Assembly (NCBI RefSeq): GCF_003991155.1
Contig: NZ_CP031294.1
Direction: 5' to 3' (one strand)
Length of the DNA: 64,000 nucleotides
Source: Escherichia coli
GTDB taxonomy: Bacteria > Pseudomonadota > Gammaproteobacteria > Enterobacterales > Enterobacteriaceae
This document shows, in pieces, positions 31,926-62,289 of the stretch (positions are counted from its first letter, which is position 1; every line of letters starts with the position of its first letter). The notes beneath the pieces were generated by a model that was not told the origin of the DNA, made no database searches, and worked only from the letters and a program-made list of their open reading frames with translations. Made by a program: the position numbers and the translations under genes.

Positions 31926-31993
31926 GGTCTGGCATGTCTTACGAAGCCTGCTTCCGTATATATTTAATAAGTTACTTATTATTTATATATACA
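31926..31993. repeat. long imperfect palindrome (gcctgcttccgtatat-AT-rich core-atatacagatgcagg), copy 1 of 2
   Basis: Read directly; second copy with same arms at 62229-62289. Confidence 0.7.
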
Positions 31994-32025
31994 GATGCAG
32001 GTCTTTAAATAAGCTCCCAGACCGA

Positions 32026-32292
32026 TTACATCACCAGTAACTTCGCTTTGGCTCGACCTAAAGTGGTTAACCCAAGAGTCCGGCGGTGATAGCGATTGTC
32101 ACTGCGTTGGCGCGTATGCCCTTTCTCCACCAGCCCCTTTTTTATCAGAGCGCGAATTGAGAACTGGATACTTTGCTTGGTTGTCTTGTACGGCAAAACT
32201 TCAAGCAATTCGTCCAGGTCAAGTAGATGACCTCGCTCATAACCGAGATTGAGCGTTTTGATGATGTCCTTTTGTTTGTCGGTTAACGTCAT
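32026..32292 (-). CDS. small winged-helix/HTH-like DNA-binding protein
   Basis: 88 aa basic protein, last gene of the ParB/ABC/GNAT operon. Confidence 0.4.
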   Translation of the reverse strand: MTLTDKQKDIIKTLNLGYERGHLLDLDELLEVLPYKTTKQSIQFSIRALIKKGLVEKGHTRQRSDNRYHRRTLGLTTLGRAKAKLLVM

Positions 32293-32301
32293 GGCAAATC
32301 C

Positions 32302-33192
32302 TTATGCCGGTAAAGCAATTTCTAACGGTTTATCCAAAGGTTGTTTGTCGAATGCCAGCAGTGGCAGCGTGTCAGGCAGTCGACGGCCAAAGTCAGGGTT
32401 TCGGTACACACCATACAACGGAGACGTAAAGCTCAGGTTGTGAATGTCCTTGAGCAGCTTCACAATGCTGGCCTCGTCCACCAGACTGTCGGCAATGTCC
32501 TGAATCGTCGTGCCACGATTCCGCCCAGCTTTTGCCAGGGAACTGTTCTTATGGTAGTCCGCCACCAAATCGCGCAGCGCACGGCGACGACGAGACTCGC
32601 TCATAGCGAACAACTCTTTGACGATCGCCTCGTTATCACCCGGGTCGGAGCGGAAATGGCGCTGGAACACACGCAGTGCACTTTCATAGCTCTTCGGTCG
32701 CTCAGGGCGGATGAACTTAAACCCTGCTTTCATGGCGAAGGGATTGTATTTGCTCATCGAGGACTGGATCTCAATGATTGGCCGGTCATGCATCCTGCTA
32801 ACCAGGTTAATCATTCTATAAGAGACGCCTACGCCACGATACTGAGTATCCACAACTGAGCGACTGATCACCGCAAAGTTGTTATTCACGTACCGACCCC
32901 AGTACTGGTTAGCCACGGTGGTATTAGTGGTTGGTTTCAACTTAGGAAACATGCGGTGGCGAGGTGCCAACAGTAGTTTCGGGTAAGCCATAACCACGAC
33001 GCCCACCAGACGGTCATCAAGTTCGCAGCGATAGTAAGTTGGCGCGAAAGGTTTGCCGTCTGTTTTGTAGTGAAGCGACTTAAGAGCGTGCCAGTCCTCT
33101 ACAGTTCCCTTTGTAACAGTCATTCGCTCCAGAAAGTCCAGATGACGCGGAAACTCTTCAGGGCGGTAGCGTTTAATGATGATGTCCGTCAT
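32302..33192 (-). CDS. GNAT-like acyltransferase-domain protein (tentative)
   Basis: 296 aa; central QYRGVGVSYRMINLV resembles GNAT acetyl-CoA motif A, followed by KAGFKFI. Confidence 0.35.
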   Translation of the reverse strand: MTDIIIKRYRPEEFPRHLDFLERMTVTKGTVEDWHALKSLHYKTDGKPFAPTYYRCELDDRLVGVVVMAYPKLLLAPRHRMFPKLKPTTNTTVANQYWGRYVNNNFAVISRSVVDTQYRGVGVSYRMINLVSRMHDRPIIEIQSSMSKYNPFAMKAGFKFIRPERPKSYESALRVFQRHFRSDPGDNEAIVKELFAMSESRRRRALRDLVADYHKNSSLAKAGRNRGTTIQDIADSLVDEASIVKLLKDIHNLSFTSPLYGVYRNPDFGRRLPDTLPLLAFDKQPLDKPLEIALPA

Positions 33193-33854
33193 GAATGGAC
33201 CTCATCATGACTACCATTGTGATATTCCACCTTCACGCGTTCTTTGTAGTGCTTGGTGATCTGCATATCAGGGCGCAGCGCGTTCTTCAGGTCTTCGTGA
33301 GTCGTCGCCACCATTACCGTCGCACCAACCTTTCGAGCGGCACGCTGGAGGTTAGACGCCACAACCTGAGCGGTTACACGGTCGAGAACAGCGCCGAACT
33401 CGTCAGCAGCCCATACTTTAGCGCCTGACTCAATCAGTTTGGCAATCTTGAGACGATATTTCTGGCCGTCTGACATTTCAGAAGGCTTGCGAACAAACAG
33501 ATATGCATCGTTCAGACCAGCCATAGATAACAACCCAAGCGCATCACTGGTCGTTTTGCCCAACTGATCGATGACGTTAACCTCATTATCGAAGGTAAAA
33601 TCATCGATGGAGGCTACAGACAGCCCTTCATCCTTCATCTGTCGTTGCAACTCGCGCAGCACAACGGATTTGCCGGAACCGGATTGGCCGGTGATGTACA
33701 CCACATCGCCCTGCTTCACTTCCAGCTCCAGATTGTCGTAAAGCGTCCACTCTTTTTCGTCCAGGCCAAGCCCGAACGACTCAGCGATTTCCAACGTGCG
33801 CGTGGTTTTATTTACGCGTGTCTGAAACGATACGTTGATGATGTATTTGCTCAT
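33189..33854 (-). CDS. small ABC-type ATPase (nucleotide-binding domain only)
   Basis: Walker A GQSGSGKS, ABC signature LSDGQKYR, Walker B VWAADEFGAVLD, H-loop TTHE. Confidence 0.7.
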   Translation of the reverse strand: MSKYIINVSFQTRVNKTTRTLEIAESFGLGLDEKEWTLYDNLELEVKQGDVVYITGQSGSGKSVVLRELQRQMKDEGLSVASIDDFTFDNEVNVIDQLGKTTSDALGLLSMAGLNDAYLFVRKPSEMSDGQKYRLKIAKLIESGAKVWAADEFGAVLDRVTAQVVASNLQRAARKVGATVMVATTHEDLKNALRPDMQITKHYKERVKVEYHNGSHDEVHS

Positions 33855-34519
33855 GCAGCCATCTCCCCGGAAGAGATCTTCTCCGCATATGCCACAAATG
33901 CGTCTACCCCGCTTTCTCCCGTCATTTCTTCCATATGGGCAAGCAAATCACCAACAACAATGGCAGAGCCAGCAGGGAGCGTTTTAAAGCCCAATACGTC
34001 GACAACACGTACTTCTTCCGCTGCAACTTCACGACTGATCTCGGTGTGTTCATCCTTCTGTCGTTTAGTTTCTTCGCCAAGATCGATAACTAGCGAGTCG
34101 GTGTCCATTTCTTCTGTCATACTGCCAACGAGAACATTCAACTCACGCTCTTCAAAGCCGAAAACCTCGATATCGTCCAGAACAAGCGACTCAAGCTCTT
34201 TCTGTAGCTTAATTGCATCGTAATCAATGCTGGCAAGTCGGTTATCTTCAAGGCGCTTCGCACGAACCTCGTCATCACTGAGATCATCGCGAACAATAAC
34301 CGGTACGCGCTCAAGTCCAGCAAAAATTGCAGCCTCACGGCGGCCGTGGCCAGTAATAATTACGTCGTTCTTATCGACCGTAATTGGCTGGTCAAATCCG
34401 CGCTTTTTAATGGCTGCGGCTAGATCTCGGATCTGCTGTTCATCATGCTTTTTGGCATTCATCTCATAGGGAATAAGATCTGCCGGGTCGCGATATACGA
34501 TTTCAAACTTTTTGGTCAT
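33851..34519 (-). CDS. ParB/Srx-fold domain protein 2
   Basis: Start at ATG overlapping upstream stop (TAATG); ParB N-domain-like QPITVDKNDVIITGHGRREAAIFAGLERVPVIV. Confidence 0.65.
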   Translation of the reverse strand: MTKKFEIVYRDPADLIPYEMNAKKHDEQQIRDLAAAIKKRGFDQPITVDKNDVIITGHGRREAAIFAGLERVPVIVRDDLSDDEVRAKRLEDNRLASIDYDAIKLQKELESLVLDDIEVFGFEERELNVLVGSMTEEMDTDSLVIDLGEETKRQKDEHTEISREVAAEEVRVVDVLGFKTLPAGSAIVVGDLLAHMEEMTGESGVDAFVAYAEKISSGEMAA

Positions 34520-35217
34520 TACATACGCTCCTTGTAGTAGTCGACCAGCCACACCAGAGCCTCACCAGCGTTCTCCATTTCATTACCGGTGTTAATAGCC
34601 TGCTCTTTGATGATGTTTTTTATGGTTTCTGCAACACGATCTGACGCATCGAAAGTTACTTTGAAGCGCATGGTCTGATGTTCCGCACCCACACGTTCGG
34701 TTTTCTCTCGTTTGTCGGTATCGACAGGCTCATCACTACCACGAGACAACGCCTCCAGTGCTTCAAGGTCGATTGCCGCCTCTTTTGCTAAAACCATCGA
34801 GATTTCGTCGTCATACGGAGCGATTTCAGACAGTTGATAGTCAAGTTCTGACTGAATTTCTTCAATGAAGCGTTGCAATGCGATTTGGTCGTCTTCACCG
34901 TATCGCTCGTTGTCCACCAGTGACATCTGTTTAGCTACGACATCGCTAATTTTGCCCACAGAAAGCACCGGAACCGTTGAAATTCCTTGCTCAATAGCAG
35001 CACGCCAGCGATGTTCGCCGCCGAGGATTTCAAAAAATCCATCTTCAAGTTCACGAGCCAAAATTGGCTTAAAAAAGCCCAATTTTTCGATAGAACCTTT
35101 CAGTTTTTCAAAATTCTGCGCACCAACCGAATTGGTGTTCCAGGTATTCGGGCGAAGGTTGGCAACATCAACCTGCAAAATCGTGATTTTTACATCCATT
35201 TTATTGCTACAATCCAC
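34519..35217 (-). CDS. ParB/Srx-fold domain protein 1
   Basis: ParB N-domain-like segment FEILGGEHRWRAAIEQGISTVPV. Confidence 0.65.
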   Translation of the reverse strand: MDCSNKMDVKITILQVDVANLRPNTWNTNSVGAQNFEKLKGSIEKLGFFKPILARELEDGFFEILGGEHRWRAAIEQGISTVPVLSVGKISDVVAKQMSLVDNERYGEDDQIALQRFIEEIQSELDYQLSEIAPYDDEISMVLAKEAAIDLEALEALSRGSDEPVDTDKREKTERVGAEHQTMRFKVTFDASDRVAETIKNIIKEQAINTGNEMENAGEALVWLVDYYKERM

Positions 35218-35281
35218 TAAGTAATCACTTACTTATTATAATAGCCAAATAACATACAAAAGGCACTAAGGAAAGAGGTTT

Positions 35282-36841
35282 ATGACTGTTCGGATTGTAT
35301 CTAACGCAGTAAATGCGCTTATTTCTGGCGCAGATGACAAGGTAAAGCAACTGGTGCAGCAAATGTTGAGCTACGAAGTCGAGACTGGCGACTGGAAGGG
35401 CACAAGCACGATGTTCAACTGGAGTAAAAACTCGTTCCCTGCTGGCTTTGCCAAGCCTGTAGCGGCGAACTTGAACAAGGCGGGCATCAAATGTGTTCAT
35501 ATCCGCAAAGACAAAGCCCCGGCGCTTGGTAAACCAAATCCTGCGGTTAACCCATTCCCATACAATCCTGATTATGCGTATCAGGATCAGACTGTGGAAA
35601 CACTGGTTCGAGAGGGAATGATGATTGCGCAGATCGCTACTGGTGGCGGGAAATCTAACGTTGCCTGCAAAGCAGCTGCACGTATCGGTCGAATGACATT
35701 ATTTTTAACAACCCGCTCTGTTCTGATGTTTCAAATGGCCGAAAACTTCCAGAGATCCATCGACTACCGCGCCGAAAATGGCGAACCGTGGTTAAAAGAC
35801 CAAAAGGTTGGAGTCATTGGCTCGGGTGAGTTCCAGGTATCACGACATATCAACGTCGCTACAGTTCAAACTCTTGCAAGTTTCCTCGAAGAACCACCAC
35901 GCGATGCAACACCAGATAAGAAAAGCTACCACCTCAAACGTCGGGAGTTGGTGAAACGCTTCCTTTCAAGTGTCTCTCTTCTTATTCTGGAAGAGGCGCA
36001 TGAGTCTTCAGGCTCAAATTTCTATGACATCGCCAGATTATGTGTGAACGCAGACTATCGTCTGGCGCTTACAGCCACGCCGTTCATGAAGGATTCGACG
36101 GAAGCCAACATGCGCCTGATGGCGGTGGCCGGGCGAATTGAAATTAAAGTCACAGAAAAGTACCTGATTGATCGAGGCATTCTGGCAAAGCCGTACTTCC
36201 TTTATCATAAAGTTGCCTACAAGCCAGACGAGGCCAGAATCAAGGCCGAACTTGCCAACAAACACCTCAATTTTAGAGTTGGTATGAGCACCGCCTACCA
36301 AAAGGCTTATCAGTTGGGGATCGTGTATAATTTGGGACGTAACGAGGCCATAGTGCGCGAGGCATTGCTTTATAAGCAACATTCACTCAACTGCATGACT
36401 CTGGTTCGTCTTAAACGCCACGGGCAAATCCTGATGGAGATGATGAAGGAGTCAGGTCTTAAAGTTGATTTCATCTATGGGGAATCTAACCAGACGACAA
36501 GGCAAGCAAAGCTGAATAGTTTAGCGTCTGGTGAAATAGATGTTTTAATAGGCTCGACTATTCTGGATGTTGGTGTTGATGTGCCAAGCGTTGGTGCGGT
36601 CATTCTTGCTGGTGGTGGGAAAGCAGAAGTTGAAATGAGACAGCGTGTCGGTCGTGGCTTACGAGCCAAAAAAAATCAGGCAAACGTGTGTTTTATCACC
36701 GATTTCATTGACATTAGCAACAAATACCTGTTGTCTCACTCTTATGAGCGAAAACACATCATCGACACCACACCTGGCTTTGCAGAAGGTGTATTGCCTA
36801 TTGATGGAGCATTCGATTTTGGAGTTCTGAAACGAGATTAG
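35282..36841 (+). CDS. superfamily 2 helicase (DEAD/DEAH-like, ResIII-type)
   Basis: Walker A ATGGGKS, motif II LILEEAH, motif III LTATP, motif VI QRVGRGLR. Confidence 0.85.
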   Translation: MTVRIVSNAVNALISGADDKVKQLVQQMLSYEVETGDWKGTSTMFNWSKNSFPAGFAKPVAANLNKAGIKCVHIRKDKAPALGKPNPAVNPFPYNPDYAYQDQTVETLVREGMMIAQIATGGGKSNVACKAAARIGRMTLFLTTRSVLMFQMAENFQRSIDYRAENGEPWLKDQKVGVIGSGEFQVSRHINVATVQTLASFLEEPPRDATPDKKSYHLKRRELVKRFLSSVSLLILEEAHESSGSNFYDIARLCVNADYRLALTATPFMKDSTEANMRLMAVAGRIEIKVTEKYLIDRGILAKPYFLYHKVAYKPDEARIKAELANKHLNFRVGMSTAYQKAYQLGIVYNLGRNEAIVREALLYKQHSLNCMTLVRLKRHGQILMEMMKESGLKVDFIYGESNQTTRQAKLNSLASGEIDVLIGSTILDVGVDVPSVGAVILAGGGKAEVEMRQRVGRGLRAKKNQANVCFITDFIDISNKYLLSHSYERKHIIDTTPGFAEGVLPIDGAFDFGVLKRD

Positions 36842-36843
36842 TT

Positions 36844-37122
36844 ATGAGTGAAAAGAAAACAACTTACTGTCAGGTAGCATTGTCTGATAAGGCCAATGAC
36901 AAACTTGGAAAGTTTCAAGTGAAACTAAAAGAAAAAAATATCAAAATGTCTAAGGCTGAAGTCATAAATACCATTCTGGAACAATTGACAATGGCCGACT
37001 TTGACAAGGTTATATCTTCTGTCGGGGCTTCCGCTAAGACTCGTGAGAAAATCATGCGTATCTATGAGAACTCTAATATGACAAAGGAAGATCTCAAAAC
37101 GCTATTAAGCAGATTAAAATAA
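36844..37122 (+). CDS. small protein, possible ribbon-helix-helix DNA-binding protein
   Basis: 92 aa, start 3 nt after helicase stop (coupled); RHH assignment tentative. Confidence 0.4.
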   Translation: MSEKKTTYCQVALSDKANDKLGKFQVKLKEKNIKMSKAEVINTILEQLTMADFDKVISSVGASAKTREKIMRIYENSNMTKEDLKTLLSRLK

Positions 37123-37148
37123 TCACGCTATCAATTAGGGAGACAAAG

Positions 37149-37613
37149 ATGAAGTCTCCCATACTGTTCACTTTCTGTTCTAAAACTATCATGAAATACT
37201 CGCTTCTCCCTCTACTAACGTTACCAGTGTTGATGCTTGCCGCGTGCCAATCACACCCAATATCAATCCATGACGCCAAACCAGCACCGCAGGCCAAAGT
37301 GTTCAAGTATCAAAGCGCAGCGCCAGCTACGTTGGTGGTAATGAGAGACACAGGTTTTGTAGGAGCTGGATGTGATGCTTCCATTTTCATCAACGGCGAA
37401 ACTGTCGCAAAACTGGCTACAGGCGAAAAAGCGACTTTCCATTTAAATGCCGGAGAATTAATTGTGGGTGCATCTCTTGAAGGTGCAGGTTTATGTGCTC
37501 TAAACCCCGCTCGTCAAGAGCGAGAAACGACTCTGAAGAATGGAGACACAAAAGCGTTCAGGGTGTTTACCAGCAATTCTGGTGACATCGACATTCTGCC
37601 AACAACTCTGTGA
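37149..37613 (+). CDS. putative lipoprotein
   Basis: Signal peptide with lipobox-like LAAC (MKYSLLPLLTLPVLMLAAC). Confidence 0.55.
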   Translation: MKSPILFTFCSKTIMKYSLLPLLTLPVLMLAACQSHPISIHDAKPAPQAKVFKYQSAAPATLVVMRDTGFVGAGCDASIFINGETVAKLATGEKATFHLNAGELIVGASLEGAGLCALNPARQERETTLKNGDTKAFRVFTSNSGDIDILPTTL

Positions 37614-37617
37614 TGAC

Positions 37618-38142: not shown

Positions 38143-38145
38143 GTT

Positions 38146-38645: not shown

Positions 38646-38673
38646 TTGCAATCTTTTTTCGCATATCGATAAT
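38646..38673 (+). promoter_or_regulatory. sigma70-like promoter candidate (TTGCAA-N16-GATAAT) preceded by A-tracts
   Basis: Hexamers read directly upstream of the 38739 operon; not validated. Confidence 0.4.
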
Positions 38674-44830: not shown

Positions 44831-45036
44831 AATAAGTTGTTTATATGGTTATGTAACGCAACGGGAACGATTTTGAGCGTGTGTTTTTGTTGGTAGTGTG
44901 TTGGGTCGTCTGTGGTGAAAATTGGACGCTGTGGCGCTGTCTGCTGCGTAGAATTACGGGTATAAGCAGTGATGTGTGAAAACGTCAATTTTTTAGACCA
45001 AATCGGGTGAAAGCGTTGATGTTTCGTTGATCTGTT

Positions 45037-45074
45037 ATTCAGTTGTTTTCTTATTGGTATAAACAACTGTAACC
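45037..45074. promoter_or_regulatory. family-2-related box with split arms (cagttgttt-N12-aaacaactg)
   Basis: Read directly. Confidence 0.45.
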
Positions 45075-45176
45075 TATTGATATTTAAGGATGTGATTCCA
45101 GGCATGGAAGGGGAGTAGTGGCGATCAACGGATTCTTATAGAAAAGAATCAAATTGTGACCGCCATTATCAATGTT

Positions 45177-45911
45177 TTACTTAGTTTTGTTTAGCAGAGA
45201 GAGAATTTCATCACTAATTTCACTCGCCTGTTTGATAGCCAATGCAGTTACCTCTTCTATGGTTGGTGACTGTTGATGCTCATATTTGGTTTCGGTTATG
45301 ACAATGTGTTCTTCACCAGAATTTGCGCATAGTGCCGCATTGACGATAAGGTTTGAGTAAGAATTTAGCAGAGCACTGTTGATGAACGCTTTCACGGTAT
45401 TACTGTCTGCACCAAATACATCTTTTCTGACCGCTTCAGCCTCACAGCGAACCCCTGCAGCAACATCGTGAAGAACATGTATGGCCTTGGAGCTTGTTTG
45501 TTCACAGTACTCAATCATTATTGTCGAATTGTTCTGTTCAACAAACGATCTGATGCCTGACGATTTACCCATAGCATCGAAGGCAGCGTGACCCGCACTA
45601 GTAGAGATATCTTCATAGAGTTCTTCATCGCTATCTTTTTCTTCAGGTGTCGAGGTGTCTTCATCGTCGTAATAGATATTGCCTTTAATCAGTGTCTTGG
45701 ACACTTGATATAAACAATAAGAAACGAGATTTAAGCATTGGATTTTAGCTGTATTGTCCTTTGTCGCCTCGCTATTCAGTTCTTTCGCTTCTTCAGTAAG
45801 GCTGTTGATAAGACTTTGTATTTTTTCCAACGCGTTAGGTGCACACTCCGCGTTGTCCATAAAGAATTTATAACCAGTCCCAGGGATTTCTAAACTTTTC
45901 AACTTTTTCAT
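45177..45911 (-). CDS. hypothetical protein
   Basis: 244 aa ORF. Confidence 0.5.
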   Translation of the reverse strand: MKKLKSLEIPGTGYKFFMDNAECAPNALEKIQSLINSLTEEAKELNSEATKDNTAKIQCLNLVSYCLYQVSKTLIKGNIYYDDEDTSTPEEKDSDEELYEDISTSAGHAAFDAMGKSSGIRSFVEQNNSTIMIEYCEQTSSKAIHVLHDVAAGVRCEAEAVRKDVFGADSNTVKAFINSALLNSYSNLIVNAALCANSGEEHIVITETKYEHQQSPTIEEVTALAIKQASEISDEILSLLNKTK

Positions 45912-45956
45912 TTCTTTGATAATCCTAAAAACAAACTACCAATGCTTTAATATCTG

Positions 45957-46256
45957 TTACCAGTTCCAGCACTCAAGCCCTTCAACGACCGGCGCACCAC
46001 AATCAAAATGTACAGAGTCAAAGCCTACATCAAGTACTTTCTGAATGTTAGCAATCGCGCCTTCGGATATACCATATCGACGCAAGTCCTCTTTCCAGAC
46101 ATCATCCTGTAACCCAGCGTGGACAATACAACCGCCGTCAATTTGTGAAACCCAATCCAGCTCATTGCTTGCGATCATGAATCGGCGAGCATCTTCCTCT
46201 GATGTATGAGATGAGCTGATCAATGCCACCTGGTAGGCTTGGGTAATGTTCAACAT
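45957..46256 (-). CDS. hypothetical protein
   Basis: 99 aa; two family-2 boxes upstream. Confidence 0.5.
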   Translation of the reverse strand: MLNITQAYQVALISSSHTSEEDARRFMIASNELDWVSQIDGGCIVHAGLQDDVWKEDLRRYGISEGAIANIQKVLDVGFDSVHFDCGAPVVEGLECWNW

Positions 46257-46266
46257 TTCAACAACT

Positions 46267-46340
46267 CCGAAACAATTTGTTTTCTTATGTGGCTTATTAT
46301 CTCAATCAACAAAAGGTAGAAAACAAATTGTTTTAGGGTT
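46267..46340. promoter_or_regulatory. two facing family-2 boxes (46267-46301 and 46315-46340)
   Basis: ccgaaacaatttgttttcttatgtggcttattatc and ggtagaaaacaaattgttttagggtt. Confidence 0.55.
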
Positions 46341-46417
46341 TGTTAAAGTCAGAAGGGGTTGTGTCTATATGAAAATGCCCAGCGTGTTGCCGGGCATTGC
46401 GAACAGAGGTTGTTTAA

Positions 46418-48451
46418 TTACTTAACCTGGTGGCCTGGTTTAGCACCAGCATCCGGGCTTAACAGGAAGATATCTTTCCCGCCGGGGCCAGCAGCCATCA
46501 CCATGCCTTCGGAGATACCGAAGCGCATTTTACGCGGAGCCAGGTTAGCCACCATAATGGTGTGACGACCAATCAGTGCCTGTGGGTCTGGATAAGCAGA
46601 ACGGATGCCTGAGAAGACATTACGCTTTTCACCACCGAGATCCAGTGTCAGACGCAGCAGTTTGTCAGAACCTTCGACAAACTCCGCGTTTTCAATCAGC
46701 GCCACACGCAGGTCAACTTTGGCGAAGTCGTCAAAGGTGATGGTTTCCTGAATCGGGTCGTCAGCCAGTGGGCCAGTTACCGGTGCAGCTGTGGCTTTCA
46801 CTTCTTCTTTGGATGCTTCCACCAGTGCTTCCACCTGTTTCATATCGATACGGTTATACAATGCCTTGAACGGATTCACTTTATGGCCCAGCAGCGGTTG
46901 CTGGATACCATCCCAGGTCAGTTCTGTATTCAGGAATGCTTCTGCACGTTCAGTCAGTTTCGGCAGTACCGGTTTCAAGTACGTCATCAGCACGCGGAAC
47001 AGGTTAATGCCCATAGAGCAAATCGCCTGCAGATCGGCATCGCGTCCTTCCTGCTTCGCCACCACCCACGGAGCCTGTTCATCGACATATCGGTTAGCCA
47101 GGTCAGCCAATGCCATGATTTCACGGATAGCTTTACCAAATTCGCGGCTTTCCCATGCTTCGCCAATCACTTCAGCGGCATCAGTAAAGGTTTTGTACAG
47201 TTGCGGGTCAGCCAGTTCGCTTGCCAGCACGCCGTCAAAACGCTTGTTGATAAAGCCTGCATTACGGGAGGCCAGGTTAACCACTTTGTTCACGATATCG
47301 GCATTCACGCGCTGAACGAAATCCTCCAGGTTGAGATCGATATCATCAATGCGCGAAGAGAGTTTCGCAGTGTAGTAGTAACGCAGGCTGTCGGCGTCAA
47401 AATGATTCAGCCAGGTGCTGGCTTTAATAAAGGTGCCGCGAGACTTGGACATCTTCGCGCCGTTCACCGTCACATAGCCGTGAACAAACAGGTTGGTCGG
47501 CTTGCGGAAGTTGCTGCCTTCCAGCATGGCAGGCCAGAACAGGCTGTGGAAGTAAACAATATCTTTACCGATGAAGTGGTACAGCTCGGCTGTGGAGTCT
47601 TTCTTCCAGTATTCATCGAAGCTGGTGGTATCGCCGCGCTTGTCGCACAGATTCTTGAAGGAACCCATGTAGCCAATCGGCGCGTCCAGCCAGACGTAGA
47701 AATATTTGCCCGGCGCGTTCGGAATTTCAAAACCGAAGTAAGGCGCATCGCGGGAGATATCCCACTGTTGCAGGCCGGATTCAAACCACTCCTGCATTTT
47801 GTTCGCCACCTGCTCCTGCAACGCACCGCTGCGGGTCCATGCCTGCAACATTTCGCTGAAAGAGGGCAGATCAAAGAAGAAGTGTTCGGAATCACGCATT
47901 ACCGGGGTAGCGCCAGAAACCACCGATTTCGGCTCGATCAATTCAGTCGGGCTATATGTTGCGCCGCAGACTTCACAGTTATCGCCGTATTGATCTGGCG
48001 CTTTACATTTCGGGCAGGTGCCTTTCACAAAACGATCCGGCAGGAACATGCCTTTTTCCGGGTCGTACAACTGAGAGATAGTGCGGTTTTTAATAAAACC
48101 GTTCTCTTTCAGGCGAGTATAGATAAGCTCAGACAGCTGGCGGTTCTCTTCGCTGTGCGTCGAGTGATAGTTGTCATAGCTGATGTTAAAGCCTGCGAAA
48201 TCAGTCTGGTGTTCCTGACTCATTTCGCCAATCATCTGCTCCGGTGTGATACCAAGCTGCTGTGCTTTCAGCATGATCGGCGTACCGTGGGCATCGTCGG
48301 CACAGATGAAATTAACCTCGTGGCCGCGCATTCGCTGGTAACGAACCCAGACATCAGCCTGGATGTGCTCCAGCATATGGCCGAGGTGGATTGAGCCGTT
48401 AGCGTACGGCAGCGCGCACGTCACCAGAATTTTCTTCGCGACTTGGGTCAT
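46418..48451 (-). CDS. metG: methionine--tRNA ligase
   Basis: Near-full-length match by recall to enterobacterial MetG: HIGH-type motif [16 protein letters not shown], zinc knuckle CPKC...C..C, C-terminal tRNA-binding domain; start set at MTQVAKK (ATG 48451), the ORF-track start is an upstream artefact. Confidence 0.95.
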
Positions 48452-48608
48452 AGTAGGCATTACTTCTTTGTAGTGAAAAGGGGCTTGATAGTAACAAAAT
48501 GGCCTTATGTCTGCCATGTGATAACAGCATTTCTCATAAATGATTAAATGTCGTAGCTGGAGTACACTACAAGGCGACAATTGCGCAAATTAAAATAAAG
48601 GAGACGGG

Positions 48609-49709
48609 ATGAGCGAGTCCAAATCGCCGGATGCCCTGAGAGCAATGGTAGCCGGTACGCTGGCTAATTTTCAGCACCCAACCCTGAAACACAACCTGAC
48701 TACGCTTAAAGCGTTACACCATGTTGCGTTGATGGATGACACACTGCATGTCGAACTAATCATGCCTTTCGTGTGGAATAAGCCTTTTGAAGACCTGAAA
48801 GAGCAATGTAGTGGTGATCTGCTCCGTATCACTGGCGCAAAGGCTATTGACTGGAAGCTGTCGTACAACATTGCCACGCTTAAGCGCGTCAAAAACCAAC
48901 CAGGCATTAATGGCGTTAAGAACATTATCGCCGTCAGCTCAGGCAAGGGCGGCGTGGGTAAATCCTCCACGGCGGTAAACCTGGCACTGGCGTTGGCTGC
49001 TGAAGGTGCGAAAGTTGGTATTTTGGATGCCGATATCTATGGTCCATCAATTCCAACCATGCTGGGCGCGGAAAACCAACGTCCAACCTCACCTGACGGT
49101 ACTCACATGGCACCTATCATGTCTCATGGCCTGGCAACCAACTCTATTGGTTATCTGGTCACCGACGACAATGCAATGGTGTGGCGTGGACCGATGGCCA
49201 GCAAGGCGCTGATGCAGATGTTGCAGGAAACTCTATGGCCTGATCTGGACTATCTCGTTCTCGATATGCCGCCGGGCACTGGTGATATTCAGTTGACGCT
49301 GGCGCAGAACATTCCTGTAACTGGTGCGGTTGTGGTAACTACGCCGCAAGACATCGCGCTGATCGATGCGAAGAAAGGCATTGTGATGTTCGAAAAAGTC
49401 GAAGTGCCGGTACTGGGTATCGTCGAAAACATGAGTGTGCATATTTGCAGTAACTGCGGTCATCACGAGCCAATTTTTGGCACCGGTGGCGCACAGAAAC
49501 TGGCCGAGAAATACAACACGCAGTTGTTAGGCCAAATGCCACTTCATATCTCTCTTCGTGAAGATCTGGATAACGGAACACCAACCGTTATTAGTCGTCC
49601 AGATAGCGAATTTACGGCTATTTATCGTGACCTCGCAGATCGCGTTGCCGCCCAAATGTATTGGCAAGGTGAAGTAATACCTGGCGAAATCGCATTCCGC
49701 GCAGTGTGA
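48609..49709 (+). CDS. mrp: Fe-S cluster carrier ATPase Mrp/ApbC
   Basis: Walker A SGKGGVGKS, CxxC motif (CSNCGHH), conserved divergent arrangement with metG as in enterobacterial chromosomes. Confidence 0.93.
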   Translation: MSESKSPDALRAMVAGTLANFQHPTLKHNLTTLKALHHVALMDDTLHVELIMPFVWNKPFEDLKEQCSGDLLRITGAKAIDWKLSYNIATLKRVKNQPGINGVKNIIAVSSGKGGVGKSSTAVNLALALAAEGAKVGILDADIYGPSIPTMLGAENQRPTSPDGTHMAPIMSHGLATNSIGYLVTDDNAMVWRGPMASKALMQMLQETLWPDLDYLVLDMPPGTGDIQLTLAQNIPVTGAVVVTTPQDIALIDAKKGIVMFEKVEVPVLGIVENMSVHICSNCGHHEPIFGTGGAQKLAEKYNTQLLGQMPLHISLREDLDNGTPTVISRPDSEFTAIYRDLADRVAAQMYWQGEVIPGEIAFRAV

Positions 49710-52400: not shown

Positions 52401-53656
<1,256 letters not shown>

Positions 53657-56700: not shown

Positions 56701-56894
56701 ATGAAGAGGCGGCGAAACGCTATATTCGCACGTCTTTAAAACGCGAATACGCCACCGAAAATGGCACAGAATTAAACGAGACATTACCAAAACTTAGTCC
56801 GTTAAACCCGCAATATAAAACGAAAAAACAGACCGTTTTCCAGAAAATCGTCACGTTTATTGAAAAGTTCAAAGGAGTAGGTGGGCAGATATAG
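53778..56894 (+). CDS. hsdR: Type I restriction enzyme endonuclease/translocase subunit (EcoR124I HsdR-like)
   Basis: 1038 aa; SF2 helicase motifs (TGSGKT, DECHR), N-terminal nuclease domain; sequence recalled as very close to EcoR124I HsdR. Confidence 0.93.
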
Positions 56895-56952
56895 TGTATT
56901 AATCTGAACCAGATCTGGCAGACATCTGTGCAAATTGCAGATAGCTGTCAGA

Positions 56953-57363
56953 TCAAACCATCGTAGGGATGTTTGTATCCACTTTGAACTCAGGTACACC
57001 AACGAACTCTTTAACCTTCATCTGGTAGCCGGTTCTGTCAGTTTTGATGACTTCCTGTTTGCCCTCTATAAACTGCTCACGCCACTCGTCGCGACGGGAA
57101 GCTGGCATGATCAGCAAAACGTTAGTCATATCCGTGACCTTCCTCCAGTACTCGGCCCAAATATTCTGTTTCACCCATTCCAGATCGACTTTATCCAGCC
57201 AAGCTCGATTCAAACGTGAGCGTTCTTCATCTGGTCGATGGTTTAGTCTCAGCAGGCGATTAATCATGTTGTGGCGTTCGTCGCCATAAACGAAGTCGTG
57301 TACCTGATACATGAAGGCGATCTCTTTCTCGCACTCGGCCACGATTTCGTGGATGACATTCAT
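56953..57363 (-). CDS. hypothetical protein
   Basis: 136 aa ORF; heptamer repeat directly upstream of start. Confidence 0.45.
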   Translation of the reverse strand: MNVIHEIVAECEKEIAFMYQVHDFVYGDERHNMINRLLRLNHRPDEERSRLNRAWLDKVDLEWVKQNIWAEYWRKVTDMTNVLLIMPASRRDEWREQFIEGKQEVIKTDRTGYQMKVKEFVGVPEFKVDTNIPTMV

Positions 57364-57370
57364 TTCCTGC

Positions 57371-57398
57371 CGATAGTCGATAGTCGATAGTCGATAGC
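57371..57398. repeat. heptanucleotide tandem repeat (CGATAGT)x4, 8 bp upstream of the 57363 start codon
   Basis: Read directly. Confidence 0.85.
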
Positions 57399-57443
57399 AG
57401 CGTTTGAGTTGGGATCGTCGATGATGGAAAGGGCTGTATTCAT

Positions 57444-57484
57444 AATAGCACCATTAAGAAGTGATTTGTTTAATGGTGCTATTA
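57444..57484. terminator. 14-bp-stem hairpin (aatagcaccattaa...ttaatggtgctatt)
   Basis: Read directly; downstream of gene 57547..58218. Confidence 0.5.
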
Positions 57485-57546
57485 TTTCAAAAATGAAAAG
57501 GTACTAAATAGAAATAAACAGGCAATCCTTCAAATAAAGGCATTGG

Positions 57547-58218
57547 CTAATCATACTTGGAGGTATTTATCACCAGAATTTTGTTTGTATAAATCTTCTT
57601 AATATCCCATGTGACATTACCGGAATACCATTGACCGTTATATACTTGGTTTCCAGTTGCACCTGTCATTGTTACATAGACAGGTCTGTCGTAATCGGTT
57701 CGTCTATAGTTATATACTCCAACCATAGCAGGCATTACCGCACATGGATACCCCATATCTATTGTAAATTGAGGGTCAGAAATAGTGATAAGTTTCGCAT
57801 CAAGGGGCATCATCTCACCGTGATACACCATTGCGCCTGCGCTGTTATACATGGCAATGCCATAGCCAGAATGTGGTAACACCATATCAGAAAAAGCATA
57901 AACTGTTATTGTTCCGGGGCTACCATTTACCTGATGCAATCTGAGAGCATTGTATCCGTTACTATGTTCATGAATAAACATCATGTTCGCCTTATTACTG
58001 CTTTTTATGAAAAAAAAACATGATTTGTTTGATGGGATTGATGTTTGAAAAACAGAACCTTTAGATGTAGACATTGTCCCTTTATTAATCAGATTTTGCG
58101 GAGTAAATTCAGGACTCATCCACAAACTTCCATCTGATTGAGTAATTGACATCCCGAACATAATTATCCCCAGTATGTGTATATGTAAGAACCAAGCCCC
58201 GTATATAAATTTGACCAA
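57547..58218 (-). CDS. hypothetical protein (AT-rich; contains T9 homopolymer on coding strand)
   Basis: 223 aa ORF; overlaps upstream ORF by 55 nt in another frame. Confidence 0.4.
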   Translation of the reverse strand: MVKFIYGAWFLHIHILGIIMFGMSITQSDGSLWMSPEFTPQNLINKGTMSTSKGSVFQTSIPSNKSCFFFIKSSNKANMMFIHEHSNGYNALRLHQVNGSPGTITVYAFSDMVLPHSGYGIAMYNSAGAMVYHGEMMPLDAKLITISDPQFTIDMGYPCAVMPAMVGVYNYRRTDYDRPVYVTMTGATGNQVYNGQWYSGNVTWDIKKIYTNKILVINTSKYD

Positions 58219-58445
58219 CTAACCGTATTTCCATTAATAGTAACATTTGGAACAGGTAAATTGATGTAGTTGTCGTTGTTAAGAGGCATTAATGACCACA
58301 CGGCATGTAGTGATTTACCCGGTGGCGGATTAGAGTACGTCTTAGAGCCTGATGACGCCGTAAATCGATCAAGAAAAAAAATAGGTGTAAGGAAGCCAGT
58401 AACGTTAATTCCTTTATTGTTGTAAATCCCTGTACCGTATGCCAT
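58164..58445 (-). CDS. hypothetical protein (possibly N-terminal part of a frameshifted gene with 57547..58218)
   Basis: 93 aa ORF, AT-rich. Confidence 0.3.
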   Translation of the reverse strand: MAYGTGIYNNKGINVTGFLTPIFFLDRFTASSGSKTYSNPPPGKSLHAVWSLMPLNNDNYINLPVPNVTINGNTVSWSNLYTGLGSYIYTYWG

Positions 58446-58499
58446 TTTTCACCCTTGTTTTTATCAACACAATATGGCCGATCATGCGGCCATATCAGA

Positions 58500-59069
58500 T
58501 CAATTAGAGCTTTGAAAGACTTTGTGTGGTTGTGTTGCGAGGTTATGTCGATGGCTTAACTCACGCATCATGTCTTCAAGGCGACTCTTTGTGTCGTCGA
58601 GTTGGTCGGCCATTGCTCCCAAAAGCTGACGAACGGCCATAGGATCATCGCTGTTTAGTGATGGCATTTTATAACCCGCCTGAGAAGACATAAGATTGAA
58701 CGCAGACATCAACATCGTTAGAGAGGATTTAAGCCCAGCAATTTCACGATCTTTGCTGGCAATAATCGTCTCACTCTTGTTAGTGTCATCAGTTCGTTGA
58801 GTCTCGCTCACCATATCCAAAGTCGCCTGCAACTTATCAGCGCGCTCTTTTTCAGCAAGATAATGAACACCGAAATGATGTGCTAAAGCTACAACCTGAG
58901 TTGGCTCTTCAAAGGTGGACTCAAAATTAAGTGCTGTAACCACTCTCTCAAATATGGAAACGTCTTCTATTCCTCGAAGAATGGCTAACATTTTGACCAG
59001 TTCATTAGCATCCATTTCTTCGAATAAGGCGTTTTGTTCATCAGCTATCGCTTTGCATTTCTTGCACAT
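58500..59069 (-). CDS. hypothetical protein
   Basis: 189 aa; family-2 box upstream. Confidence 0.5.
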   Translation of the reverse strand: MCKKCKAIADEQNALFEEMDANELVKMLAILRGIEDVSIFERVVTALNFESTFEEPTQVVALAHHFGVHYLAEKERADKLQATLDMVSETQRTDDTNKSETIIASKDREIAGLKSSLTMLMSAFNLMSSQAGYKMPSLNSDDPMAVRQLLGAMADQLDDTKSRLEDMMRELSHRHNLATQPHKVFQSSN

Positions 59070-59084
59070 GTGTTTTTCCTAATT

Positions 59085-59119
59085 CTTAAACAAGTTGTTT
59101 TCTTATTGGCTTTATTGTG
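59085..59119 (-). promoter_or_regulatory. family-2 promoter/operator-like box
   Basis: cttaaacaagttgttttcttattggctttattgtg. Confidence 0.6.
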
Positions 59120-59366
59120 ATGTGGCATAAAAGGGGAGCAAGCTAAACGTAAAGGTGCAAACTCTCTATTTCGGTCAACGAAACACAAGGGCCATTTGGC
59201 CCTTGTTATTAACACGTTGCTTTACGGACTAGCGGATAAGCGAAGTAGATCGCCAGACCAATGAGGACGCCATCAGAAATGACAGACATCATCTTTCCCG
59301 TAAAATCCACCAACACCGCCATCACCAGAAGAGCAATGACGATCACAAGCCGGAATCTCTCAAGCA

Positions 59367-59792
59367 TTAGAGATAAGCATCCAGTGACAACTGAAGCGCC
59401 TGGGCGATCTTTTTCAGTGCCTGCTCTTCTTGTTCACCAATGCCATCCTGATCGGCAATATCAAGGCACAGACACAGAACATCGACCGCCTCTGGAGTAC
59501 CCGCAATATCAGACAGCTCACGAATAGCCTGTGCATTAGCAGAACGAGGGGACGCTTCGTAACGAGCACGGATATTGGCGCTCATTTGGGCAATTTCACC
59601 AGCAAACGGAGAAAACGCAGGCAGAGCTGCAATTGTCTTCTCAAGAATGGCAATTTCTTTTGCGTCACATGTGCCGTCGGCATAGGAGATCATGTACGCG
59701 CCCCACACGGTGGCCTCAACCGCATCACGGTTCTCCATTTTTTTGACTTCGATAACTGCTTTACGAGTTTTCTTTTTGAAGAAACCTAACAT
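59367..59792 (-). CDS. TerB-like (tellurite-resistance TerB domain) protein, tentative
   Basis: 141 aa; two D-x-DG-x-x-x-x-E segments (SYADGTCDAKE, IADQDGIGEQEEQA) as in TerB. Confidence 0.45.
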   Translation of the reverse strand: MLGFFKKKTRKAVIEVKKMENRDAVEATVWGAYMISYADGTCDAKEIAILEKTIAALPAFSPFAGEIAQMSANIRARYEASPRSANAQAIRELSDIAGTPEAVDVLCLCLDIADQDGIGEQEEQALKKIAQALQLSLDAYL

Positions 59793-59812
59793 GTGTTTTC
59801 CTTTTGTTATTT

Positions 59813-59838
59813 GTCAAAACAAGTTGTTTTATAGTTTC
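59813..59838 (-). promoter_or_regulatory. family-2 palindrome (aaaacaagttgtttt)
   Basis: Read directly, about 20 bp upstream of ATG 59792. Confidence 0.55.
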
Positions 59839-59885
59839 ATAAATTGCTTACGCAAAGATGGTCAATGCATATGCACTAACAGCCG

Positions 59886-60074
59886 TCAGAAATAACCAAG
59901 TACCGAACCGACTGGAAAAACAAAAATCCCAACTACACGAGCCAAGGTCATGCCAGCCTGAAACTGGAGATCGCCAGAGCAAACAAGTTTTATAATGTTC
60001 GATACCCAACCGGCGGCCATGAGGGCAAGAATTGCCAGCCAAATTTTTCCAAAGTGATTTGAAAACCAGTTCAT
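59886..60074 (-). CDS. small membrane protein
   Basis: 62 aa, two hydrophobic segments. Confidence 0.35.
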   Translation of the reverse strand: MNWFSNHFGKIWLAILALMAAGWVSNIIKLVCSGDLQFQAGMTLARVVGIFVFPVGSVLGYF

Positions 60075-60083
60075 ACAACCGCC

Positions 60084-60578
60084 TTAGTCACAGCATGATC
60101 CTGAGTAACCGGATGAACTTGAGGTATCGCATCCACCGTCATCCCATCCAGAGTGACAGGACGCTCTACTGGAGTGGTGGTAATTGTCGTCGACGGAGGT
60201 GTGGTGATGGATGAACCCGGCATCAAAAGGCTCTGGCCGGCTGGAACGGCTACCGTCGCCAGTGAAACTATAATGAGAACGTAGGCCATTGGTTTCAGCC
60301 TCTTTCTTTGAAAATTTTCCATTCGAACTGTCCTTGTTGTTTTTCTCCTTCACTAAAGGCCGTGTACTTTTCGCTTCGCGTGAAGAACCAGAGGCAACAA
60401 TCGCCCCCACGTTCGCAACAACTGACGCTTGATTATCTAAACGTTCATTCAGCAACCGAACGGTAGTCTCTAGTTCATCAAGACGTGACATAACACGACC
60501 GCTAAACAATTCGGCCAAAATTTGACGTAAAGAACGAGGACGTTTAGTTGCAGAAGTGAAATAGGTTTGACGTGCCAT
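60084..60578 (-). CDS. hypothetical protein (C-terminal half may be artefactual; a signal-peptide ORF is embedded in another frame)
   Basis: 164 aa ORF; embedded ORF 60071..60322 begins MAYVLIIVSLATVAVPAG. Confidence 0.3.
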   Translation of the reverse strand: MARQTYFTSATKRPRSLRQILAELFSGRVMSRLDELETTVRLLNERLDNQASVVANVGAIVASGSSREAKSTRPLVKEKNNKDSSNGKFSKKEAETNGLRSHYSFTGDGSRSSRPEPFDAGFIHHHTSVDDNYHHSSRASCHSGWDDGGCDTSSSSGYSGSCCD

Positions 60579-60723
60579 GTGGACTCCATCCAGTGTCAGA
60601 AAGAGTTGCGGCTGGCGATTGCCAGCCGCCTTTCTCGTTCCATCCTGGAACTGTGTCTTACCGACACATTGTCATCCTGACGCTGATAAGATACATGATT
60701 TAAAATGATAGGTAAACACTTAC

Positions 60724-61317
60724 TTACCACTTGTTATAAACAAAACCAATATCTTTCTTGTGAGGCATATCTGCTGCTGAAAAAGCTGCGATCTTCGCGA
60801 GTCGATCACATATTTCATTTTCACGATGCCCGGCGTGACCTTTAACCCACTTCCAGCGAACATTATGTCGACTTGCGGCCTCATCCAGACGTTTCCACAG
60901 ATCAACATTCTTTACCGGTTTTTTATCAGAAGTCATCCATCCATTACGTTTCCACCATTTCATCCACTGTGTCATGCCGTTTTTCAGATACTGGCTATCA
61001 GAGTACAAAATAACGTTGCATGGATATTTCAAACGCTCCAGCCCGATAAGTGCGCCCATCATCTCCATGCGGTTATTGGTGGTGCTATGAAAACCATCTG
61101 AGAACTCGCGTTCCTCACCACGATACTGGAGAACGATACCGTAACCGCCCGGGCCACCCGGATTTTTAAGGCAAGAGCCATCACTAAAGATTTTCACGGT
61201 TTTGAGCTGGGGATTGAACTCTACGACAGGCGTTGTGGGATTGGTGCGGGGAGAATTTTTGTTTTTGGCTTTTTTGCGAGTTTTTGCTTGCGATCGGGCT
61301 GGTGTCTTCGTCGTCAT
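60724..61317 (-). CDS. RNase HI-like ribonuclease with basic N-terminal extension
   Basis: Start set at ATG 61317 (MTTKTPAR) with AGGAG SD; four acidic residues align with the RNase HI catalytic D/E/D/D positions by recalled alignment to E. coli RnhA. Confidence 0.75.
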
Positions 61318-61900
61318 ATAAACTCCTGAATCAAGCGCCGCGCCGATTTTTTCCTCGCGCGTGCGCACACGCGTGCGTGTTAATAATTATTAAAATAAAC
61401 AAATTACTTCCCAGAACAGGTTTTTTATAAACCTGAACTGAACGAACGAAGTGAGTGAAGTTCACCTCGAACGAAGTGAGAGGTTGTCTTTTCAGGTAAT
61501 ACTCTCCCAGGGAGGTGAGTATAAAATTCCTCACCAACCTGGTCGTTTCATAACCTGAAAAGCTATGGTCTAAGTCTACTGCCAGCTTAGACTTGGGAAG
61601 TTATGGATGACAGCACCCCAGAACCGAGATCTTCCCACACTTTATGAAGGGGAGTACTGGATTCAACCTCTCGAAACACCCCAGACTCGACAATCATAAA
61701 GTGACCCTTGTCTCTGCTCACTTTGGTTCCCCCTTCCCCGACACCTAAACGGCACCGGTTCTACGCTGGTAGTGAGCTTTTTTAAACCTGACGCCAGTGA
61801 CGCTTACCCCCACCCATCAGGTCGAGTCTCCAGTCTACGACTGGAAACTATCAGATCTTAGCACTTACAATTCACTTTATGAATAGTTTGTACTTATCTA

Positions 61901-62155
61901 TCATTTCGATTGATTATTTTTTCGACCATGTAGTTGAACATTCAAGGCAAACACCTCGTTGATCAACTCACCTAAAAGCTGTTCAACAAGTTCGCGATGC
62001 TCCCCAAGATGCAAGCACTTAATTGCCCATTCGTACAAGTTGAAAGCCTGCTCACGATCTTTCATCATTTCACGAGCCTGGGCCAGAAAATCGCTCTCTA
62101 CGAGCGCAACGACATTAGTCGGATATGACATGTTGGTTTCCTTAAAGTGGTTCAT
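61901..62155 (-). CDS. small hypothetical protein
   Basis: 84 aa ORF. Confidence 0.35.
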   Translation of the reverse strand: MNHFKETNMSYPTNVVALVESDFLAQAREMMKDREQAFNLYEWAIKCLHLGEHRELVEQLLGELINEVFALNVQLHGRKNNQSK

Positions 62156-62228
62156 AAAATCGATTTTAAAGCGTCTGGGAAGGGGTTCTAGTGGATTCTG
62201 TAGTGGTGTTCAGGTCTGGGAGTCTCTG

Positions 62229-62289
62229 ATATAAAACAGCCTGCTTCCGTATATTAATAATTAATATGTAGTTATTTATATATACAGAA
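62229..62289. repeat. long imperfect palindrome (agcctgcttccgtatat-AT-rich core-atatacagaagcaggct), copy 2 of 2
   Basis: Read directly; same arms and orientation as 31926-31993. Confidence 0.7.

Follow-up and report, generated by a model that had tools for sequence, protein, structure and literature searches.

A 64,000-nucleotide (nt) stretch of Escherichia coli contig NZ_CP031294.1 (assembly GCF_003991155.1), called the window hereafter, carries two near-palindromes of 56 and 57 bp with strongly related sequences. Megablast searches with the regions around both copies identify the window as part of a phage-plasmid of the SSU5 supergroup. The relatives recovered are Escherichia phage CMS-2020a (98–99%), PhiR41_1, Cyrano, Salmonella phage SSU5 (78–87%) and Klebsiella phage-plasmids (76–80%), the window itself being 98–99% identical to CMS-2020a and to Cyrano/pLF82. 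Cyrano is pLF82 of E. coli LF82, i.e. a re-annotated plasmid sequence. Related replicons are deposited as circular, and their genes run nearly all one way, the minus strand of the window corresponding to the plus strand of the Cyrano record.

Three copies of the palindrome, at positions named here sites A, B and C, split the genome of ~109 kb into three blocks. The block starting at site B (~32 kb) contains the packaging, head, tail and lysis genes together with toxin–antitoxin genes and parAB; the block starting at site A (~46 kb) covers replication and DNA metabolism (helicase, primase, ligase and polymerase); and the block starting at site C (~30 kb) combines accessory genes with ParB-like, ABC-ATPase and winged helix–turn–helix (wHTH) genes. 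Sites B and C are copy 1 and copy 2 of the window. Site A lies just outside, so that the two-copy repeat described in an initial annotation of this DNA is in fact a three-copy one. Copy 1 separates the last gene of the ParB-like/ABC-ATPase/wHTH block, an open reading frame (ORF) of 88 aa (wHTH, phrog_900; 32026–32292, minus strand) whose stop codon lies 25 nt before it, from the first gene of the packaging/head/tail block, terS (phrog_867, small terminase according to the Cyrano annotation; 31198–31830, minus strand), which starts 115 nt after it. Copy 2 follows by 23 nt the stop codon of a phage N6-adenine methyltransferase gene (TIGR01712; 62318–62911, minus strand), the last of the replication/DNA-metabolism block, and precedes an 84-aa ORF (phrog_5343; 61901–62155, minus strand). 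These are the neighbours named at the outset, i.e. a wHTH and a small terminase gene for one copy, and a Dam-like methylase and the next gene for the other. Contrary to the initial proposal, the structural module is not enclosed by the copies. Packaging, head and tail genes (terminase, portal, capsid) occupy positions 1–31,830, outside the interval, and the 30 kb between the copies harbour accessory and early genes as well as the genes for methionyl-tRNA synthetase (MetRS), a MinD/Mrp-like protein, the UvsW helicase, two ParB-like proteins, two ABC ATPases and the wHTH protein. The idea of just two copies that flank a mobile or structural segment is therefore ruled out, both by the third copy and by the location of the structural genes.

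Copy 1 extends over 31946–32001 (56 bp, minus strand; sense sequence CCTGCATCTGTATATAT-aaataataagtaacttattaa-ATATATACGGAAGCAGG(C)) and copy 2 over 62239–62295 (57 bp, minus strand; GCCTGCTTCTGTATATAT-aaataactacatattaattat-TAATATACGGAAGCAGGC). A repeat search pairs 31945–32001 with 62238–62294 at 81% identity over 57 nt and with a spacing of 30,293, in keeping with the ~30-kb distance and common orientation given initially. The palindrome sequences quoted then are right; the boundaries proposed at that stage (31926–31993 and 62229–62289) were off by 8–20 bp. Within the window, the 17-nt arm CCTGCTTCCGTATATAT, with up to 3 mismatches allowed, occurs four times, exactly as the four arms, for 0.12 occurrences expected. 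The sense-strand consensus reads CCTGCTTC(C/T)GTATATAT - AAATAATAAGTnACTTATTAA - ATATATACGGAAGCAGG. The C/A mismatch reported for both copies is present at arm position 9 of the plus strand and corresponds to a G·U wobble on the transcribed minus strand, while copy 1 has a second mismatch, T·T at arm position 6. Folding of the sense-strand RNA gives −23.9 and −24.6 kcal/mol (z about −7.3 versus shuffles for both copies). In the predicted fold of each copy, a 17-bp stem, G+C-rich at its base, carries an A–U stem of ~7 bp at its top; the stems measure 24–27 bp in all. Thus, in both copies the transcribed strand offers the stable hairpin with G+C-rich base expected of a terminator. Collectively, the four arms and the z-scores indicate a repeat that is real and far beyond chance, and the arm count rules out a low-complexity artefact. 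The arms also hold a CTGTATAT half-site, but the halves are ~45 bp apart by inspection and do not constitute the CTGT-N8-ACAG arrangement, which excludes a LexA box.

An outer dyad surrounds each palindrome, with TCTGG(GAG) ~20 nt upstream, after the stop codon, and (CTC)CCAGAC 14–29 nt downstream. Around copy 1, the upstream arm (32014–32023, minus strand; sense GGTCTGGGAG) comes directly after the wHTH stop codon and pairs in a 116-nt fold with the downstream arm (31926–31932, minus strand; sense CCAGACC). Around copy 2, the arms are at 62307–62314 (minus strand; sense GTTCTGGC), just past the methyltransferase stop codon, and at 62213–62222 (minus strand; sense CTCCCAGACC). Such extended folds of 116 nt reach −44.2 kcal/mol (z −8.9) for copy 1 and −40.3 kcal/mol (z −6.8) for copy 2. 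No Rfam 15 family matches at gathering score anywhere in the window, and no description of the palindromic element was found in the searchable literature.

The third copy is located at 30712–30764 of the CMS-2020a record (L129 2213–2265). As window positions 1–1229 align with L129 2773–4001 at 99.5%, it would lie ~510 bp to the left of the window. The rest of the CMS-2020a genome (~45 kb beyond the window) is devoid of additional copies when up to 4 mismatches are allowed. One exact arm, searched in IMG/VR, yields at least 120 loci, 112 of them with full elements, and mapping of their flanks assigns all but a few chance matches to three orthologous sites. Site A follows the operon of parA and a parB-like gene of 119 aa, often with a variable cargo gene in between, and precedes a phrog_2500 gene and the genes for a DnaB-like helicase and a primase. 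Site B is always found between the wHTH gene and terS, and site C between the N6-adenine methyltransferase gene and the 84-aa ORF. When loci are retrieved via a neighbouring protein and not via the motif, in order to avoid selecting on the latter, the element is present at site B in 66/66 cases, at site C in 66/66 and at site A in 75/75. Its distance from terS is 95–117 nt in all 66 terS-anchored loci. Each copy occurs 10–25 nt after a stop codon, between flanking genes that are all on the minus strand. Many further copies genome-wide would denote a generic repeat; what is found is three per genome at fixed positions. Because there are exactly three copies, always at the same three orthologous positions, a generic family of the REP/BIME, ERIC or MITE-like type is ruled out. 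The same applies to attL/attR sites of an integrated element, since the replicon is a circular plasmid and the copies occupy conserved internal positions.

What distinguishes the sites is the sequence directly 3′ of the hairpin. A sense-strand U-run is found there in 70/75 loci at site A and in 65/66 at site C, but in 0/66 at site B; on the antisense strand, U-runs amount to 14/75, 0/66 and 27/66 at sites A, C and B, respectively. The T-rich tail persists at sites A and C though the sequence beyond it differs between lineages. In the window, copy 2 is followed at 62228–62238 (minus strand) by UGUUUUAUAUC, which together with the hairpin gives the layout of an intrinsic terminator, and the sense strand of copy 1 continues as CUUCGUAAG, with no U-run. 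The nature of the imperfect pairs also favours a function on the sense strand, where G·U outnumbers A·C by 43 versus 14 among 53 distinct arm combinations, and compensatory T–A double changes occur at arm positions 5, 8 and 9.

Published expression data bear on site A. In RNA-seq of LF82, which is lysogenic for Cyrano, normalised counts are 49.8 for parA, 89.1 for the 119-aa gene and 54.6 for the cargo gene CYRAN_30 (CYRAN_28, CYRAN_29 and CYRAN_30; PMC9928086, table S1). CYRAN_31, the first gene past site A, has a count of 6.2 for a median background of 9.8 (PMC9928086, table S1). Under condition B6, the log2 value across site A goes from 10.42 to 2.56, with a floor of 2.32 (PMC9928086, table S1). 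The 193-bp intergenic region of Cyrano contains the palindrome followed by TCTTTTAAAG only, and a terminator scan finds no other terminator-like site in it. These per-gene data support efficient termination at site A, and the hairpin itself probably causes the fall in RNA. Given the conserved U-run at both sites and the RNA fall across site A, sites A and C are most likely intrinsic terminators, copy 2 being a presumed terminator by sequence analogy with site A. Of the roles put forward in the initial annotation, that of a long stem-loop terminator or processing site therefore fits copy 2, by its hairpin and conserved U-run, and the third copy, where the RNA drop comes in addition, but a canonical terminator at copy 1 is not supported, given the complete lack of a U-run at site B.

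Placed on the gene map, these data lead us to propose, with confidence that is evenly divided, that a family of three ~55-bp hairpins punctuates the near one-directional transcription map of SSU5-supergroup phage-plasmids. Rho-independent termination at sites A and C would keep the transcription of one block out of the next. In particular, a constitutive operon of parA, parB and cargo genes would be halted at site A before it reaches the silent replication genes of the prophage. Copy 1 is not a canonical terminator because its hairpin lacks the U-run; it might, rather tentatively, be a hairpin for RNA processing, pausing or 3′-end stabilization, or have a second role at the DNA level. Relatives tell something of the history of site B. 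In sister pCAV plasmids, with TerS proteins 59–65% identical, a diverged or degenerate but recognizably homologous hairpin with a T-run occupies the site B position, and an Acinetobacter phage-plasmid has an ordinary short hairpin with a T-run there. Judged from these sequences, termination is the likely ancestral role at this position. In Pseudomonas phage nickie, TerS and TerL are homologous and the genes just upstream of terS are ordered in the same way, but the site B position is without a palindrome.

Several observations weigh against a purely terminator-based account. The RNA-seq values are per gene, so that the 3′ end is not placed on the hairpin, and sites B and C lie between genes whose RNA is at background level. 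The hairpins escape a simple terminator scan, their loops being longer than it allows. Above all, conservation concerns the sequence itself. A plain terminator requires just a structure and a U-run; here, across 64 distinct variants, 8 of the 17 outer stem pairs are invariant, and conservation extends to the A+T-rich core TAATAAGTnACTTATTA, while the flanking genes differ by 20–25% (75–80% identity). Covariation is marginal, with a score of 0.076 versus 0.064 in shuffles, a value reached by 6 of 500 shuffles in a control that is lenient since the sequences are related; paired cells amount to 90.9% versus 90.0% in shuffles. In no lineage is site B followed by a U-run, and its conservation nevertheless equals that of sites A and C. 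At site C of the Klebsiella-type lineage, mismatches even favour the antisense strand (eight A·C versus seven G·U). Finally, what is preserved in the outer dyad TCTGG…CCAGA is the sequence rather than covarying pairs, an observation equally compatible with a symmetric protein site and with an RNA stem. One lineage (L163, L164 and L189) has lost both arms of the dyad together, and in the L240 type three direct CCAGACC repeats follow site C.

Comparison with known systems yields partial likenesses. The element resembles intrinsic terminators by its hairpin with G+C-rich base just past a stop codon, by the U-run at sites A and C and by the transcript fall across site A. It differs from them by a much longer stem (17 + ~7 bp) with an A+U-rich upper half, by its near-identity at three sites and across genera, and by the missing U-run of copy 1. 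The RNase III hairpins of phage T7 (R0.3–R18.5) are likewise similar hairpins repeated between genes transcribed in one direction, and the modelled stem of 24–27 bp would suffice in length for RNase III. Unlike the T7 sites with their characteristic internal loop, the element shows no such loop in its predicted folds. As in the lambda sib/tI retroregulator, transcription would have to run past the inner terminator before the outer stem GGUCUGGGAG/CCAGACC could form. PeSL cassettes of T4-type phages and the boundary or linker sequences of lambdoid phages also combine a stem-loop and an adjacent promoter-type motif at module junctions, with variable cargo genes nearby (as at site A) and gene-conversion footprints between copies. 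Unlike them, the element has only three copies at fixed orthologous sites, and no copy-mediated shuffling or deletion was found. The four dispersed SopB centromere repeats of N15 (IR1–IR4) and the KorB operators of RK2 are also few, scattered palindromes, and here too one copy is by a partition operon and one near the late operon. However, the N15 and RK2 sites are 13–16 bp long and bound by a ParB/SopB-type protein, whereas the element measures 55 bp (~100 bp with the outer dyad) and the partition partner is seemingly a small ribbon-helix-helix (RHH) protein. Lambda cosN and N15 telRL share with copy 1 the dyad symmetry and the position directly upstream of terS, and the SSU5 record ends inside the element; in contrast to cos and telRL, there are three copies per genome, the prophage is circular and the parts of the Cyrano annotation covered contain no protelomerase.

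Within several E. coli-type genomes, sites A and B do not differ at all. Genome 2880329822 has at its three sites a common, unusual inner sequence, which is lacking at site C of other genomes, and the 3′-arm variant CGAAAG is found at site B only in genomes that have CGAAAG at site C. These within-genome comparisons represent gene-conversion footprints, left by exchange without crossing over or by crossovers whose products did not survive. Gene conversion helps explain the uniformity within a genome and may partly maintain that of the sequence as a whole. Blocks are also exchanged between lineages, as seen in the mosaic genome IMGVR_UViG_2576861193_000004, where sites A and B with their flanks are E. 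coli-type (97–99% identical to the window; L152 and L308) and site C with both flanks is Klebsiella-type (75–81%; L263), so that the boundary is not at the palindrome there.

The particular position of copy 1 raises the question of packaging. Classically, as in lambda, cos is situated directly upstream of terS, which is where copy 1 lies. The linear GenBank record of SSU5 ends with GCCTGCTTCCGTATATAT-aaatactaagtgacttatta and starts with aATATATACGGAAGCAGG, i.e. at the arm/core junction of a perfect palindrome situated 115 nt upstream of terS, and both the SSU5 and the Cyrano records begin and end inside copy 1 (window 31963|31964), the Cyrano start being 1 nt off the SSU5 point. Cleavage of a cos type at arm/core junctions would give such record ends, and site B is the only site that lacks the U-run. 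Copy 1 as a cos or pac site or part of one, with sites A and C as related copies unused by the terminase, is nonetheless rather improbable. Three near-identical copies per genome would be hazardous for a cos phage, and uniqueness is lacking, as two more copies lie 30 and 32 kb away, though only site B adjoins terS. The ends of the records could mark a physical cos end or, equally, an assembly break or an orientation convention: Cyrano is not an independent case, being a re-annotated plasmid whose orientation was probably changed to agree with SSU5, the SSU5 ends would be accounted for by a break of the 454 assembly at a perfect palindrome, and IMG/VR contigs commonly break in or near the element, at varying positions. 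Moreover, no SSU5 termini are reported in the accessible papers, and nickie, with its homologous terminase and same gene order, does without such a palindrome. In the LF82 virome ERR8973296, Cyrano has only ~41× coverage, equal according to its authors to the plasmid contamination that they estimated. The TerL relatives do not indicate the packaging type, since those in T5-like, Jersey-like, P23-45, Pelagibacter and Vibrio phages (25–41% identity) are too distant to tell cos from headful packaging. Somewhat better founded, though still unlikely, is the idea that palindrome and outer dyad form a ~100-bp symmetric nucleoprotein site on DNA, used at three places by a phage or plasmid protein, termination being a side effect. 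It would make sense of the near-invariant primary sequence of arms and core over three sites and many lineages, of the conserved GGTCTGGGAG…CTCCCAGACC dyad at roughly symmetric distances with its concerted loss in one lineage, of the direct CCAGACC repeats of the L240 type and of a site B conserved without U-run. A reader protein that co-evolved with its sites could explain the inner sequence common to all three of them in genome 2880329822, and candidate binders are encoded next to the sites (an RHH-type ParB at site A; wHTH, TerS and two ParB-like proteins, 33851–35217, at site B). On the other hand, no family match ties any neighbouring protein to such a site, and a one-strand U-run at sites A and C has no role in it. 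A change in specificity would alter all sites, and some arm changes affect a single one, such as T8–A8′ at site C (L243 versus L178). The upstream outer motif is also missing at site A where certain cargo genes are inserted. ParB proteins of the type Ib RHH class normally bind arrays of short repeats upstream of parA, and a long palindrome is unlike these targets. It is tempting to combine both ideas in a three-site recognition system read by a phage protein, either with a cos-type copy 1 and terminator derivatives at sites A and C, or with a ParB-like, wHTH or RHH protein binding all three, which would then be dispersed organizing or centromere-like sites and at the same time act as barriers to transcription in the prophage; we give this composite a minor share of probability, like that of the protein site.

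A dyad with an A+T-rich centre also evokes lytic replication origins or priming signals, the centre serving as unwinding element or the hairpin as single-strand initiation signal. Several origins per genome exist in T4 or SPP1, CCAGAC repeats adjoin the palindromes, and site A stands directly upstream of the phrog_2500, DnaB-like helicase and primase genes. Still, nothing specific points to replication, the GC skew does not switch at the sites, the virulent relative nickie lacks the element at the site B position, and the strand-specific U-run and RNA drop are left unexplained; an origin is accordingly a poor candidate. Least credible of all are targets of a site-specific recombinase, resolvase or protelomerase, although the initial annotation had listed recombination or resolution among the possible roles, the palindromic form with a central spacer would suit a recombinase and the genome encodes an integrase (CYRAN_44). 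Three direct copies would excise segments of 30–46 kb. When synthetic deletion junctions were compared with PLSDB, the joined form was found in 0/588 records for site C upstream with site B downstream and in 0/480 for site B upstream with site A downstream, the two halves matching separately only. At first sight, the 76-kb record of pRM13322 could be such a deletion, but it is linear, seems incomplete and has retained site B as well as the structural genes. As to a protelomerase, the replicons are circular, three target copies would fragment the genome, and none is annotated in the Cyrano segments covered (1–3 kb, 27–48 kb and 75.5–108.4 kb). Gene conversion is the only footprint of recombination, and the recombinase, resolvase or protelomerase reading is largely refuted.

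The genes leading to site A occupy positions 1–1609 of the window (minus strand) and comprise the 119-aa ParB/ParG-like gene and part of a cargo gene. The 119-aa gene (1250–1609, minus strand) comes after a type Ib parA and carries in Cyrano the label ‘RelE/ParE putative toxin’. A partition partner of the ParB/ParG type is suggested instead by where the gene lies and by a weak match to a ribbon-helix-helix family, so that the toxin label is probably wrong; Pfam and NCBIfam searches with the 88-aa and 119-aa neighbours give no usable family. The cargo gene (1–1197 within a segment at 1–1248, minus strand) is partial in the window and A+T-rich (GC 0.36). It encodes a P-loop NTPase of 567 aa (GxxGxGKT, phrog_4740) and has a small hairpin of its own at 1221–1248. 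In CMS-2020a, the site A palindrome is found 10 nt past the stop codon of the cargo gene; in relatives without cargo, it directly follows the stop codon of the 119-aa gene; and in many others, including Cyrano, a different cargo gene intervenes, with at least five different ones seen at this spot in other relatives. The spot between the parB-like gene and site A is thus an insertion hotspot inside the terminated unit.

Promoter- or operator-type motifs downstream of each copy also occur elsewhere in the genome. The region between copy 1 and terS (31849–31924, minus strand), conserved in all site B alignments, contains two copies of the AGAAAACAAnTTGTTT motif and a leader hairpin. This hairpin (31849–31870, minus strand) is terminator-like, with GAGCGCatggacGCGCTC then UGUGUGUUUUAG, and is flanked by the regulatory motifs on one side and the start codon of terS on the other. 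All relatives have kept it, nickie having an analogous leader hairpin, which suggests that the late operon is under antitermination control. The motif belongs to a family of the form ACACC-N4-AGAAAACAAnTTGTTT with the palindrome AAACAAnTTGTTT, which gives 11 matches for 0.31 expected. Members are at 2316–2337 (minus), 31867–31886, 31899–31920 (minus), 41016, 41501, 42236 (plus), 43154, 43638, 45039, 46273, 46309 (plus) and 59091, i.e. ahead of parA, in two copies ahead of terS, and in front of many small operons of the accessory region. The family resembles an operator or promoter element used by a global regulator and is comparable in this to the C1 operators of P1. A second motif, TAAGTAnnTACTTACCTAT, consists of a small palindrome followed by CCTAT and is present at 5292, 9504, 22928, 28419, 29926, 35217 and 62924, and at L129 2101–2120 (minus). 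In two inspected cases, the portal gene and the phrog_2500 gene after site A, it precedes the start codon by a few to ~25 nt, and it may be of late-promoter type.

Other repeats and genes complete the picture of the window. The accessory region contains repeated cassettes of ~470–500 bp (39392/39888, 41012/41497, 41161/41632 and 43150/43634). In each, the regulatory motif comes with a small ORF and a terminator hairpin rich in G+C (e.g. TTAAGGCCACCAGCATTGGTGGCCTTAA, found twice), and the cassettes look like small gene units that were duplicated in tandem. By correspondence with CYRAN_99 and CYRAN_100, a methionyl-tRNA synthetase gene of full length and a divergent MinD/Mrp-like ATPase gene lie at ~45,000–49,400. 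The ATPase gene is expressed ~9-fold above background in the LF82 lysogen (PMC9928086, main-text table). A 12-nt unit, CTGAGCTTACCG, is repeated about three times in tandem at 52944–52988. The structural half has internal repeats at 5871–7372, 8319–8863 and 10541–10936, with units of 77–131 nt, units of 26 nt and four tandem units of 99 nt.

The main puzzle is that sequence is conserved rather than structure alone, and this invariance, together with the U-run-less copy before terS, points to a trans-acting factor or the packaging site. Among the phage-plasmids of Enterobacteriaceae, the SSU5 type is one of the commonest. TerS matches 954 PLSDB records, ~770 of them at ≥60% identity, and the group includes pHCM2 of Salmonella Typhi, pMT1 of Yersinia pestis and carriers of CTX-M and KPC. 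The compact signature CCTGCTTCCGTATATA provides a means of recognizing this group, and the barrier elements mark the place where cargo is inserted, upstream of site A and inside a terminated unit. Three conserved barriers at the block boundaries would offer a testable answer to the question of how lytic genes are kept silent beside maintenance and cargo genes expressed from the same strand.

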